DNA from: an uncultured bacterium
Lineage (GTDB): Bacteria > Babelota > Babeliae > Babelales > Vermiphilaceae
Length of the DNA stretch: 64,000 nt
Direction of reading: 5' to 3'
Assembly (NCBI GenBank): GCA_963707655.1
Contig: OY970172.1
Span: 32,001 to 96,000, forward strand
Under the pieces are notes generated by a model, which was not told the origin of the DNA, did no database searches, and worked only from the letters and a program-made list of their open reading frames with translations. A program made the translations under genes and the position numbers. Positions 35,603 through 41,657 of this stretch are shown piece after piece (position 1 is the stretch's first letter; every line of letters begins with the position of its first letter).

Positions 35603-35973
35603 CCAAAAATTCCTTCTTCAGGGGAACCTGTCTTCATTTCCATCATAGTTTTTTTATGAACAACAACAGCCTACGACTCTTGCCGCTAATGTCAATTCTC
35701 TTCCTCAGAAGAAATGGTTTTGCCATTGGATTCGTCGAAACTTGGCAGAAAGGTCAGGGCAGTGGATATATCTGGACAGATTTTATGAGAAGAAATGGCC
35801 CGCAGATAGATTCTTGGGGAAATGGTAAGAGTAGAGTTGCTGGGAAGTATTTATCGCCCTACTACGCACGAGGCTTGGAAGGGCATACTTCGCTTAGTGC
35901 TATCAATTTCAATTTATTGCGAAGTGTTTCCTTGAAAGACGCTGGCCTGCCATACGAAGCTTTTAGCGAAGTA

Positions 35974-36065
35974 TGGAGGAGAGAGAGGGATTCGAACCCT
36001 CGATGCCGTTCTCACGGCATAACGGTTTTCAAGACCGCCGCAATCGACCACTCTGCCATCTCTCC
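35974..36065 (-). tRNA. tRNA-Ser(TGA)
   Basis: GGAGAGA/TCTCTCC acceptor stem, CT-TGA-AA loop, long variable arm, GGTTCGAATCC, encoded CCA. Confidence 0.95.
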
Positions 36066-36191
36066 GTTTTTCAAGATTATAATTTCAATGTATGCGCAGT
36101 GAAGGGCCAGTAATTTATGTATTTCATTTACTGGCGTCAGCCACTCGTAGTTTGCCAAGCAGGGCGAAGCGCCGCATGGATAAACGAAGAG

Positions 36192-36268
36192 TGGTGCGCC
36201 TATTAGGAGTCGAACCTAAAACCTTCAGATCCGTAGTCTGACGCTCTATCCAATTGAGCTATAGGCGC
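36192..36268 (-). tRNA. tRNA-Arg(ACG)
   Basis: TCAGA-CT-ACG-GA-TCTGA anticodon arm, GGTTCGACTCC, encoded CCA. Confidence 0.95.
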
Positions 36269-36477
36269 ATATTTCAATATTCAATTTCAATTTATTGCTA
36301 AGAGCTTCCCTTAAAGGGATTGGCCTGCCATACGAAGCTTTAGCGATACAGTCCAGTCTTCGCTTATCCGGGCCTTCAGGCTCGGCAAGCTATGACGGAC
36401 AGCCTACGATCTTGCTATTAATGTCAATTGTCTTCCTCAGAAGAAATGGCGCTGCCAGCCGGAGCCTTGGCGTAGGC

Positions 36478-36570
36478 TGGTGGAGAGAGAGGGATTCGAA
36501 CCCTCGCGCCCGGAATTACCCAGACTCTTGCTTAGCAGGCAAGCGCTTTAAGCCACTCAGCCATCTCTCC
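36478..36570 (-). tRNA. tRNA-Ser(GCT)
   Basis: CTTGC-CT-GCT-AA-GCAAG anticodon arm, long variable arm, encoded CCA. Confidence 0.95.
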
Positions 36571-36804
36571 TCTGGCATTTCAAATAAATTTTATTGCAAC
36601 TCATAAAAGGATAAAGTATACCATATTTAATGCAATAATATTTTAAAAACTTAAGATATTGTAGCTGATTTTTTAGTGTTTGTATACTGGATACAATGAT
36701 TTTTGCTGCTTTATTCTACTTCGCCATAAAATTCTAGGGCTTTAGGCTGGAGATAAAAATGCGAGTAGAACTCTTAGAAGCCTTGGCGTAGTAGGGTCAG
36801 AGCC

Positions 36805-37116
36805 ATGAAACATTCAAGGATGCATTTGATTATCGAAATTAAAGTGGTGCCGAGCTCGGGAAAAATGCAATGGAAGCTGAATAAGGCGGAGCAATTGGTT
36901 TGTTATTTAAAGAGCCCGCCAGAGCGGGGCTTGGCAAATCATGAGCTCATTAAAGAGCTTTCAAAGGCATTAAAGATAGCCAGGGTAAATATTAGCATCG
37001 CTACCGGCCAAACATCACGGCTGAAAAGAATTGAAATTAAAGATGCTTCTATAACCTATGCTGATGTATTGCGATCCTTGGGAATCGAGCCGCAGTTGTC
37101 ACTTTTCAAGACATAA
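36805..37116 (+). CDS. DUF167 (YggU/UPF0235) family protein
   Basis: IKVVPSS...LKSPPERGLANHELIKELSKAL...GQTSRLK. Confidence 0.85.
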   Translation: MKHSRMHLIIEIKVVPSSGKMQWKLNKAEQLVCYLKSPPERGLANHELIKELSKALKIARVNISIATGQTSRLKRIEIKDASITYADVLRSLGIEPQLSLFKT

Positions 37117-37134
37117 GAAAGAAGGAAAACAACA

Positions 37135-38337
37135 ATGCCTTATTATGCATGGCAAGGAGTTACGCTTGCGGGTACCGTGCGTAGGGGGAAGATGTTTGCG
37201 CAATCACGCGAACATTTGGATAAACTTTTGTTTGAGCAGGAAATCGCGCTTCTTAAAGCAAAGCATGTTTCTGTCTGGTCCATTTCTGGCGTGCCTATTG
37301 CCACGCGATTACTCTTTTTTGATTCGTTAAAACACTTGTTGAAGGCCGGCCTGCGCTTGCCCGATTCTTTGCGCGTATTGAGTGAGCAGCAGAGTTCATC
37401 GGTGCAATTTCAAGCGGCAATTTATGCTATTGCCCATGACATTGATCATGGAAAAAGTCTCAGAGTTGCATTTCAGGCATATCCGGCATGGATCGATGAA
37501 ATTACGGTGGCGATGTTACAGATTGGTCAAGAATCGGGCTCTTTGCCACGCGCGCTTGAATTGATTACCCATCGCCTGCACTGTTCTATCCAATGGCGTA
37601 AAAAAATAAAAGCGGCAGCGCTGATGCCGATTATTACTTTGGCGTTTTTCTGTGCGGTTGTAGCACTTGTCTTTGTGATCATTATTCCCTCATTCTCATC
37701 ATTGCTTGCATCTCGGAAAGAAGCATTGCCGCTCTTCACCCATATTTTATTGCGAATGAGCAAGGCGATGACCAATGGTCGCTTCATGTTCTGGTCAATA
37801 AGCGCGGCGGCGCTGCTTGCCGTTGCGGCCCGTTGCGCAATAAAGACGAGTAGAGGGAGAAAGGCTTTAGATTTTTTATTGCTACACATTCCTTTTGTTT
37901 CATTGCTTATCAGGATGAAAGAGTATGCACTTTTCTTCCAGGCGCTTTCGCTTGTTATGCAACAGGGCGGGCATATTGCCATAGCCTTTCCCCTGGCAAG
38001 AGGTACGGTGCGCAATTGGTACGTGAGACAGGAGCTCTATCTTCTTGAGCAGGATGTAATGAGTGGAACTTCGCTGCACAAGGCAATGAGAACGCATAAC
38101 TTTTTCTCTCCTGAAAGTTGCGCCTTGGTGGGCATAGGAGAAGAAACCGGATCGTTAAGCATTATGCTTGAGCAGGTTTCTCGCGCTTATCAGGAGCGGG
38201 TAGACAAGCAGCTGGCAACCATGACAACGCTCTTTCAGCCACTGCTCTTGCTTGCGTTGGGATTATTGGTTGCGGCGCTTATTTTTGCTATTTATATTCC
38301 TCTTTTCCAGATGCCGGATAGCTATACATTTATGTAG
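37135..38337 (+). CDS. Type II secretion system F / type IV pilus platform protein (PilC-like)
   Basis: Two T2SSF domains (LLKAGLRLPDSL, IGQESGSL, IGEETGSL) and C-terminal QPLLL...AIYIPLF. Confidence 0.9.
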   Translation: MPYYAWQGVTLAGTVRRGKMFAQSREHLDKLLFEQEIALLKAKHVSVWSISGVPIATRLLFFDSLKHLLKAGLRLPDSLRVLSEQQSSSVQFQAAIYAIAHDIDHGKSLRVAFQAYPAWIDEITVAMLQIGQESGSLPRALELITHRLHCSIQWRKKIKAAALMPIITLAFFCAVVALVFVIIIPSFSSLLASRKEALPLFTHILLRMSKAMTNGRFMFWSISAAALLAVAARCAIKTSRGRKALDFLLLHIPFVSLLIRMKEYALFFQALSLVMQQGGHIAIAFPLARGTVRNWYVRQELYLLEQDVMSGTSLHKAMRTHNFFSPESCALVGIGEETGSLSIMLEQVSRAYQERVDKQLATMTTLFQPLLLLALGLLVAALIFAIYIPLFQMPDSYTFM

Positions 38338-40551: not shown

Positions 40552-40579
40552 GTTCTGTGGCTTTTTATTTTTCAAACAT

Positions 40580-40608
40580 TTGACGGAATCAGCTGTTTCT
40601 TATACAAT
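40580..40608 (+). promoter_or_regulatory. Sigma70-like promoter for tRNA-Leu
   Basis: TTGACG-17 bp-TACAAT, 24 bp upstream of the tRNA. Confidence 0.7.
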
Positions 40609-40632
40609 TAATCGCAGTTAGAGTTGAAATAT

Positions 40633-40719
40633 GCCGGGATGGCGAAACTGGTAGACGCACGGGACTCAAAATCCCGCGGTGGCAACACCATGTCGGTTCG
40701 AGTCCGACTCCCGGCACCA
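40633..40719 (+). tRNA. tRNA-Leu(CAA)
   Basis: CGGGA-CT-CAA-AA-TCCCG anticodon arm, long variable arm, A73-CCA. Confidence 0.95.
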
Positions 40720-40944
40720 GTCTTCGCCTACGTGGGAATGGCTTTGAAATGTAAGCTAGGATTCGTCTGGCGCTGCCAGCCTATTTAAAGGATTGACAGA
40801 AGACTGGGTTTGCATCCTGCGTAGCTTAATAACACTCCAAAGTATTGCCATAAAGCGAAGCGGGACAAGCCAGTAAATGAAGTACATTAGATATAAAAAA
40901 GCTTGGTTCTCATCAGCGTTAGACCAGAAAAAATCAGAGAGTAA

Positions 40945-41298
40945 ATGGCAGATCTTAATTTTGATAAAAACTGTATCTTCTGCAAAATTATTGCGCGCGA
41001 AGTGCCCTCCGCTATTATTGCTGAAACTAATAACATTATAGTAATCAAAGATCTTTTTCCCAAAGCCCCCATTCATTATTTGATTATTCCCAAAAAGCAC
41101 GTGCAGGATATTCAATCATTACATGAAAATGATACTGCATTGGCGGGCGAGCTGATTTTGATGGCAAAGCAATTATCAACGCAGCTTAATGGTTCCAAGG
41201 CGTTTCGCTTACTGGTAAATTCAGGAGCAGATGTAGGGCAAAAAGTATTCCACCTTCATTTACATTTTCTTGCGGGTAAACAATTAACTGATTTTTAA
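40945..41298 (+). CDS. HIT-family (HinT-like) nucleotide hydrolase
   Basis: CIFCKII, PKAPIHYLIIPKKH, histidine triad HLHLH. Confidence 0.93.
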   Translation: MADLNFDKNCIFCKIIAREVPSAIIAETNNIIVIKDLFPKAPIHYLIIPKKHVQDIQSLHENDTALAGELILMAKQLSTQLNGSKAFRLLVNSGADVGQKVFHLHLHFLAGKQLTDF

Positions 41299-41308
41299 GT
41301 ATCTATAT

Positions 41309-41395
41309 GCCGGGATGGCGAAATTGGCAGACGCACAGGCTTCAGGTGTCTGCGGTGGCAACACCATGTCGGTTCGAGTCCGACTCCCGGCACCA
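41309..41395 (+). tRNA. tRNA-Leu(CAG)
   Basis: CAGGC-TT-CAG-GT-GTCTG anticodon arm; the rest is nearly identical to tRNA-Leu(CAA). Confidence 0.92.
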
Positions 41396-41657
41396 GCCTA
41401 TGCTCCAAGGGAGCTACGGCTGGAAGTAAGAGCATAGCCTGGACTGGGCGCCAACAGAATAAGTTTCTTCCCCCTACGTGGGAATAACATTGAAGGAAAT
41501 GTGTGGCGGGCCATGTCTTCACTTATCTAGATCTTTTGCTGTCGACGAATGGGTTTACCCACTATTAGTCAGATTTTTGACTTTTTTATGGCCATTTGTT
41601 ACTTTTTTATTATATTTACCGACTAATTGTAATTATTTTTTTAAATTGAGGTATTTT

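Follow-up and report, generated by a model that had tools for sequence, protein, structure and literature searches.

Hairpins begin at the encoded CCA of several transfer RNA (tRNA) genes in the DNA analysed here, a stretch of 64,000 nucleotides (the window) from an uncultured bacterium of the family Vermiphilaceae (Babelota). The window corresponds to positions C1:32001-96000 of a 1.09-Mb single-contig genome (G000) that is 88.6% complete. These hairpins are probably gene-less copies of a leader of 120-150 bases that joins the CCA end of a tRNA or transfer-messenger RNA (tmRNA) gene to the gene of an 80-residue GIY-YIG nuclease. Judging from the sequences compared, leader and gene together would constitute a selfish element whose nuclease nicks single-stranded DNA (ssDNA) and spreads copies. 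The anatomy of the element, its linkage to the gene, its turnover at orthologous tRNAs, its strand bias and its displacement by genomic islands are observed directly. The element is real and widespread, and it is apparently undescribed, as no account of hairpins together with a GIY-YIG gene at tRNA ends was found in the literature searched (subscription journals lay mostly outside it, and the Ssn supplements were excepted). An earlier note on this DNA had proposed a structure-conserved, REP-like element at the 3' ends of tRNAs, recognised by an unknown protein and possibly serving mobility; a likely partner protein and signs of mobility are now at hand.

A covarying hairpin at tRNA CCA ends

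The hairpin that starts at the CCA, hairpin A, follows the consensus CCA-NNC-TWC-GC loop GC-TWC-G-NN-TGG. Both its census and its covariation analysis were based on explicit pairing rules: a hairpin was counted when its outer stem had six pairs, no more than one of them mismatched, when T-N-Y loops lay on either side and when the inner stem had at least two pairs. Genome-wide, a full hairpin lies at offset 0 from the CCA in 17 of the 38 tRNA genes, and two hits in total come from the 41 remaining offsets examined between -12 and +29 over the same genes. The rule is satisfied at 42 of 31,154 CCA sites, which comprise the 17 tRNA ends and 25 of the ~31,100 sites elsewhere, so that the hairpin is present at 45% of tRNA ends versus 0.08% of the other sites. 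The left arm, intact or decayed, is found at 20 of the 38 tRNAs and at the tmRNA. In the tmRNA copy (C1:971089-971107, locus L037) hairpin A is collapsed, with the inner stem-loop missing between two TTCG repeats. The tRNA-Ile and tRNA-Ala genes of the rRNA spacer carry no element. An analysis of k-mer over-representation across the genome did not reveal the repeat because its copy number is too low.

An alignment of 32 distinct 26-base copies from many genomes displays 97.2% paired cells, and four of the nine pairs have changed on both sides. The covariation score was equalled by none of 500 shuffles, a result that is not a probability because the copies were selected for pairing and are mutually related. 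Seven terminator-like sites are located between 35500 and 41800, none of them overlapping any element, and the GC stem with a T run that characterizes an intrinsic terminator is absent from the elements. A search of Rfam at E<=10 over positions 35000-42500 revealed no convincing family on the elements; the sole weak match, sX4, scores 26 bits against a cut-off of 70 and is centred on a tRNA. At E<=0.1, four loci including the nuclease leader likewise matched no family that covers the element. The earlier note had described covariation, a preference for tRNA CCA ends, empty rRNA-operon tRNAs, a lack of U-tracts and no family that could be named, all of which agree with these results. Its statement that the stems always pair is too strong, since 15 of 96 distinct hairpin A copies have a T.T or T.C mismatch at outer position 5.

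Hairpin A is the first part of a longer module. It is followed by a mini repeat (TGGC-N2-5-GCCA) that overlaps it, an AT-rich spacer, an inverted copy of the left arm (the distal inverted repeat) and hairpin B, which resembles hairpin A but has the opposite orientation. The distal repeat, which in the full module copies the left arm perfectly in inverted form, matches the variable bases of that arm in 48-50 of 54 copies versus 22-26 after shuffling. The repeat thus follows the variation of the left arm, implying that this arm has two alternative partners.

Linkage to a small GIY-YIG nuclease gene

G000 contains one stand-alone GIY-YIG gene (C1:315763; PF01541, 64 bits); 10 bases of a tRNA-Arg end and a full module lie ahead of it. 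Its homologues are mostly 80 residues long, and the G000 protein extends 27 residues beyond their usual end. The named close homologues belong to Candidatus Dependentiae/Babeliales. Residues Tyr5, Tyr17, His31 and Glu63 are invariant in 35 aligned homologues. No specific NCBIfam model exists for the protein; the clade presumably falls under the label cd10449 (SLX1-like). The best structural relatives are Slx1 enzymes, found by sequence (E 6e-9) and by the fold of a predicted model (TM 0.83; PDB codes 7cq3, 6sei and 7wme).

The genomic surroundings of the gene were examined at 82 loci, namely the best 80 of 583 loci in species genomes and two viral ones. A tRNA or tmRNA gene lies within 700 bases upstream on the same strand in 62 of these loci and on the opposite strand in none; in 51, hairpin A starts at the CCA. 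The loci with an upstream tRNA or tmRNA cover 12 phylum-level groups according to the record titles, and their targets include 14 amino-acid types and tmRNA. In three other genomes (loci L007, L010 and L045) the gene follows tRNA-Arg(ACG). Viral contigs contributed three loci, one of which matches a bacterial locus identically over the upstream 200 bases. In a tree of all GIY-YIG genes from ten genomes and G000, from which 14 of 52 loci were excluded (long UvrC-like proteins, short or broken frames), the nuclease clade is set apart with full support, and an upstream tRNA or tmRNA is found for 13 of its 19 members versus none of 19 other small GIY-YIG proteins. The co-occurrence with a nuclease family that had been suggested is found, with the 80-residue GIY-YIG gene directly behind the module in many phyla. 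The HUH transposase that had been named as another candidate partner is not: G000, at 88.6% completeness, holds no match to PF01797 (Y1 transposase).

Element and gene also co-occur across genomes. The element pattern is found in all 38 related genomes with a nuclease match versus 10 of the 23 without one, a comparison of 61 genomes whose kinship makes them non-independent, and at least two copies are found in 31 of the 38 versus 3 of the 23. The targets were followed in a tree of 88 distinct proteins with a tRNA upstream, built on 80 columns and with 38 of its 85 forks unresolved. At this low resolution one clade has 12 of 13 members behind tRNA-Arg genes of four anticodons, and the tRNA label changes 41 times over the tree versus 61.6 after shuffling. 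The pattern fits a switching among tRNAs with similar ends, to which kinship and query bias contribute.

The region behind the gene was inspected at 76 loci, four of the 80 having been dropped for missing flanks or stop codons. A repeat of the right arm is present within 150 bases behind the gene in 10 loci and in reverse orientation in 11, versus 4 in the control. The 10 of 76 against 4 of 76 rule out an arrangement like that of an insertion sequence, in which a constant repeat would follow the gene.

Turnover at orthologous tRNAs and displacement by islands

The congener G001 (29 tRNA loci) and five genomes without a nuclease match (14 of 15 loci) were used for comparison. For 27 single-copy tRNA types, G000 and G001 are both filled at 12, both empty at 9 and different at 6; one Met(CAT) gene also differs in the presence of the element. 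At Thr(TGT), Cys and Gly(GCC), the difference consists of inserts of ~95, 112 and 140 bases directly behind the CCA with the downstream flank preserved. The junctions of the Thr(TGT) and Cys inserts are ambiguous by 1-2 bases, and these clean inserts of 95-140 bases contain no gene. At Leu(TAG), Ala(GGC) and Asp the downstream sequences of G000 and G001 align poorly. Even the 12 sites common to both genomes mostly hold unlike variants; a TGC variant is found at six tRNAs of G001 and at none of G000. In the five relatives without a nuclease match, the element is absent from all 16 tRNA genes examined in the Ser-Arg-Ser region.

Within G000, a paralogous pair displays the filled and empty states side by side. 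The site at C1:315559, a copy of a duplicated remnant, is filled with the leader and the gene, which lie within a long hairpin that is uninterrupted at the empty counterpart, C1:1006372. The module is also retained at 10-base remnants of tRNA ends that produce no tRNA.

Two serine-recombinase islands, at tRNA-Arg(TCT) and tRNA-Asp, have moved the tRNA end together with hairpin A by ~10.3 and ~7.3 kb, respectively. At tRNA-Asp the module preceded the island, because G001 carries directly at this gene the same GTC variant as the displaced copy in G000. The island behind tRNA-Arg(TCT) (C1:996068-1017350, loci L033 and L034) is of the large serine recombinase type, adjoins the tRNA directly and includes a helicase-like open reading frame (ORF) of 1,486 residues. 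Next comes a tandem array whose genes, at most ~630 residues long, have a common N-terminal part, variable C-termini and a small gene after each, an arrangement that resembles a polymorphic toxin-immunity array. A further member of this family lies behind the nuclease gene (C1:316142). The island at tRNA-Asp (C1:244948-252201, locus L036) spans 7.3 kb, encodes a serine recombinase-like ORF of 485 residues and has at its far end the displaced tRNA end with hairpin A.

Strand asymmetry of the hairpins

A census of 96 distinct hairpin A copies reveals a marked difference between the strands. On the tRNA-sense strand, mismatches in the outer stem include seven A.C and no G.T; the antisense strand has wobble pairs at the same positions. 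The internal loop on the antisense strand places G-W-A opposite G-W-A, an arrangement that presumably would form sheared tandem G.A pairs. Of the short terminal loops, 48 of 63 have the DNA-stable form GNA, GNNA or GNNNA or the two-base form Y-YY-R on the antisense strand versus 3 of 63 on the sense strand; the classes were set after the sequences had been viewed. The Y-YY-R form, which we likewise take to be stable in DNA, accounts for 29 of the 48. The purine strand of hairpin B shows the same bias (23 of 27 versus 0 of 27). The purine strand folds better in 83 of the 96 copies with DNA energies and in 86 with RNA energies. PMC13037366, in the part drawn on here, describes GNA and GNNA loops with a closing sheared G.A pair as unusually stable in DNA and far less so in RNA. 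The simplest reading of the sequences is that each DNA strand would carry one purine-form hairpin and that hairpin A would take its functional form on the template strand of the tRNA gene rather than within the precursor transcript.

Copies of the module in the window

Five tRNA genes were located with ARAGORN in the part of the window that holds the hairpins. Full modules follow Ser(TGA), Ser(GCT) and Leu(CAA), hairpin A alone follows Arg(ACG), and a collapsed module follows Leu(CAG). The four hairpins that had been quoted for Ser(TGA), Arg(ACG), Ser(GCT) and Leu(CAG) are present as written and start at the encoded CCA.

The first three targets are on the minus strand. Hairpin A of tRNA-Ser(GCT) (36478-36570) begins with the CCA of the tRNA, has a TAC/TCC internal loop and occupies 36455-36480. 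Its right end is overlapped by a TGGC-N3-GCCA mini inverted repeat (36447-36457); the distal inverted repeat (36400-36408), a perfect complement of the left arm including the loop, and a long form of hairpin B (36351-36399) complete the module. Behind the latter lies an extra, truncated hairpin A of a TAC variant (36321-36346) that retains the right half and the mini repeat. At tRNA-Arg(ACG) (36192-36268), a solo long hairpin A (36141-36194) and a mini repeat (36132-36143) extend over 36132-36194, and a hairpin B was not found. At tRNA-Ser(TGA) (35974-36065), hairpin A (35950-35976) and the mini repeat (35943-35952) together span 35943-35976 and are followed by the distal inverted repeat GCGAAGTATG (35884-35893) and a decayed hairpin B (35856-35883). 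A remnant of a further module, recognized by reading the sequence, occupies 35667-35725 on the same strand, beyond the range that the earlier note had covered; its mini repeat, spacer and inverted repeat resemble those of Ser(GCT).

The leucine targets are on the plus strand. The hairpin A of tRNA-Leu(CAA) (40633-40719) has a decayed inner stem and an expanded loop (40717-40770) and forms, with its mini repeat (40768-40778), the feature at 40717-40778. The distal inverted repeat, with GAAGACTGG at about 40799-40807, occupies 40798-40807, and hairpin B lies at 40815-40866. The beginning of this hairpin A had been recognized correctly; the partner placed about 80 nt further on is the distal inverted repeat, and the right arm itself ends at 40770. 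At tRNA-Leu(CAG) (41309-41395), hairpin A (41393-41423) and a nearby inverted repeat with one mismatch (41433-41441) make up the collapsed module at 41393-41441. A 13-base stretch, CCTACGTGGGAAT, occurs both in the loop of the Leu(CAA) hairpin (40727-40739, plus strand) and past the Leu(CAG) module (~41469-41481, plus strand).

Three hairpins had been listed as free copies. Those at 35855-35884 and 36352-36400 are the hairpins B of the Ser(TGA) and Ser(GCT) modules, and only the third, a decayed B-type hairpin at 36771-36796 (minus strand), is isolated. It belongs to a B-type subfamily without a link to tRNAs, in which a TTCTAC-TTC-GCC arm stands at a distance and hairpin A is absent (C1:285830, 409939, 521602 and 814673, and the window copy at 36771-36796). 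Two further arrangements were observed outside the window. A full module at C1:966203-966333 (minus strand) starts at a CCA that closes 13 bases identical to the anticodon arm of initiator tRNA-Met, a stretch that is not a tRNA 3' end. In the permuted modules of loci L055, L074, L085, L087 and L121, the inverted repeat and hairpin B are located inside the loop of hairpin A.

The interval between the two groups of targets contains a PilC/GspF-like gene (37135-38337) that adjoins an ORF of 732 residues (38353-40551, plus strand). The encoded protein starts with a hydrophobic leader, and its C-terminal part contains a P-loop region that we take to be similar to the ATPase domain of MutS.

Proposed mechanism and alternative explanations

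The nuclease would bind the purine-form hairpin through its G-W-A/G-W-A loop with sheared G.A pairs, on a strand exposed by replication or by heavy transcription of the tRNA. The nick is expected at the foot of hairpin A, that is, at the CCA junction on the template strand, and the nicked end may then be repaired through copying, with the 3' end of another tRNA gene as target or as template. The copying would be guided by the short similarity that T-arm, acceptor strand and CCA provide, in a homing-like manner without an integrase, and may include the module with or without the gene. The gene would be expressed by read-through from the tRNA promoter. The cost of such an element is low because the tRNA stays intact. 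In G000, the single nuclease gene (C1:315763) would have supplied the activity in trans for the copies that lack a gene. A bolder proposition is that these elements form a new class of minimal mobile element of ~400 bases, which would reach any tRNA or tmRNA CCA end using only an 80-residue GIY-YIG nuclease, distinct as a nickase from Ssn, and ssDNA hairpins with sheared G.A pairs, without an integrase, a transposase or a second end. We put this forward tentatively, with rather more doubt than confidence.

Several observations weigh against a mobile element of this kind. The G000 nuclease, with its 27-residue read-through tail, may be inactive. The cassette has no fixed right end that would set its 3' boundary. 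G046, a genome of the same order that is 99% complete, has 11 pattern matches and no nuclease match at E<=1e-8, G008 has five pattern matches without a nuclease match, and seven nuclease-bearing genomes have a single pattern match each. Differences in presence cannot separate gain from loss. The B-type copies of one subfamily are located off tRNAs. The target tree is poorly resolved, and its arginine clade perhaps reflects kinship in part, because the loci were chosen by likeness to an Arg-linked query. As for the strand bias, the loop classes were chosen with the data in view, the largest of them being the assumed Y-YY-R class, and either energy set favours purine-rich internal loops for generic reasons.

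The likeliest of the alternatives regards the leader mainly as a regulatory 5' region of the nuclease gene. The left arm would switch from hairpin A to the distal repeat on a read-through transcript, the nuclease would be a domesticated repair or restriction enzyme, and the gene-less copies would be debris of duplication and deletion. The predicted lowest-energy fold of the module, as DNA and, behind the tRNA, as RNA, indeed joins the left arm to the distal repeat while hairpin B keeps its own fold. This pairing covaries, and the transcribed sense strand carries the purine form of hairpin B. Moreover, the SsnA nuclease of Neisseria acts on incoming DNA, and its movement is not demonstrated in the main text of PMC11893778. 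A regulatory leader, however, explains neither the gene-less copies in exact register at 20 of the 38 tRNAs nor the turnover between congeners nor the maintenance of DNA-type loops on the antisense strand, and the folding z-scores of the whole module are weak (-0.7 to -2.8). We consider it unlikely, although it deserves to be kept in mind.

Delivery of the element by another enzyme, with the GIY-YIG gene as a passenger, has a still smaller chance of being correct. The carrier would be the integrase of an island, or a retro-like route in which the tRNA CCA primes by pairing with the TGG of the element. Such delivery would agree with the copies at the far ends of the two serine-recombinase islands, and with the TG or TGG that closes both arms as well as the distal repeat. 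At both islands, however, the module follows the displaced tRNA end and predates the island. The range of targets, 14 amino-acid types and tmRNA, is broader than the site of an integrase, and only three matches on viral contigs were obtained. No Y1 transposase was found in the 88.6% complete G000; no search for a reverse transcriptase was made.

The earlier note had also considered that the hairpin acts in the tRNA precursor, where it would sequester the CCA and control 3' maturation. In 17 of 38 tRNAs the stem begins with the encoded CCA, and under either predicted fold the CCA, or its final two bases, is paired in the precursor. By contrast, the element is gained, lost or exchanged at orthologous genes, is found at 0 of 16 tRNA genes in the five relatives without a nuclease match and persists behind 10-base remnants that are not tRNAs. 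The sense strand has no G.U wobble, and the loops and mismatches favour folding of the antisense strand as DNA, which argues against sequestration of the CCA. We regard this function as very improbable. Hairpins behind tRNA genes are common, but ordinary intrinsic terminators or chance stem-loops have next to no probability here, given the fixed internal loop, the exact register, the contrast of 45% to 0.08% and the seven terminator-like sites that all lie clear of the elements.

Comparison with known systems

The proposed selfish element, a nuclease gene with its hairpins, resembles the Ssn/NTS and RAYT/REP systems in its working, since each combines a small nuclease gene with many cognate hairpins, but it is a member of neither. 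As in the Ssn system (Chenal et al. 2025, PMC11893778, main text), a tiny single-domain GIY-YIG gene is positioned beside its own hairpin repeat and many copies of the repeat lack the gene. A hallmark of the Ssn system is site-specific cutting of one ssDNA strand and of neither dsDNA nor RNA; for the present repeat, the strand asymmetry would likewise predict one strand as the substrate. SsnA nicks near its NTS hairpin, and cutting requires Tyr6, Tyr17 and Glu64, according to the same source; they correspond to Tyr5, Tyr17 and Glu63 of the present nuclease. There are several differences from this system, as far as its main text describes it. The SRM pattern matches once in 1.09 Mb, at the copy at C1:244946, in none of the 20 tRNA-end elements and nowhere within 500 bases of the 19 genes of the clade. 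The protein has 80 instead of 94 residues, and the clade is separated (100/98) from proteins of 94-97 residues taken as SsnA-like; one of these has an adjacent SRM match, and we infer their membership in cd10448. The repeats are one-sided here and both-sided in 42% of cases according to PMC11893778. Finally, the targeting of tRNA and tmRNA CCA ends is exact, whereas the word tRNA is absent from the main text of that paper.

The likeness to REP/REPIN sequences and their RAYT enzymes, as presented in the part of PMC3733652 (Di Nocera et al. 2013) drawn on here, is one of analogy: short imperfect palindromes form inverted doublets with a spacer and appear tied to one nuclease that would act in trans. 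The partner in the present case is a GIY-YIG protein, and G000 contains no Y1_Tnp match. Unlike the GTAG/CGTC-tagged REP sequences treated there, the hairpins have a symmetric 3x3 internal loop, G-W-A-G within both arms and no unpaired terminal tag. They also differ from REP/RAYT in their location at tRNA ends; within that part of the GTAG/CGTC survey a GIY protein is unmentioned and tRNA appears just in the form of tRNA-modifying genes.

Phage T4 SegB (PMC2330249, as far as drawn on here) offers another analogy, as its GIY-YIG gene lies among tRNA genes and spreads by cutting and non-reciprocal repair. Homing of this type involves cutting of the empty allele and its conversion by repair; filled and empty sites are present at the tRNAs here. 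SegB, an enzyme of a phage, cleaves double-stranded sites, with conversion of the orthologous region as the outcome; the element described here differs in its lone catalytic domain, its hairpin repeats and its changes between non-orthologous tRNA genes. The structurally similar SLX1 enzymes (PDB codes 7cq3, 6sei and 7wme) are eukaryotic, multi-domain and partner-dependent and have no cognate repeat. Their processing of branched DNA is in keeping with a cut at the foot of a hairpin. With the islands that target tRNAs by means of serine or tyrosine integrases, the module shares the 3' end of tRNA and tmRNA genes as its site and the preservation of the gene, but it has neither an integrase nor a duplicated tRNA end, and the islands displaced the module rather than carrying it.

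Implications

Stand-alone small GIY-YIG genes are abundant and mostly unexplained; we estimate that ~2,400 stretches of the species-genome collection match the motifs of the nuclease clade. The link to a defined hairpin and to tRNA ends supplies one GIY-YIG clade with a candidate substrate and predicts both the strand and the site of the cut. For annotation, such hairpins behind tRNAs call for caution, as they are neither terminators nor RNA motifs. If the element moves as proposed, it would represent an integrase-free route into tRNA loci, and its nucleases would stand next to Ssn as a second family that cuts ssDNA at specific sites.

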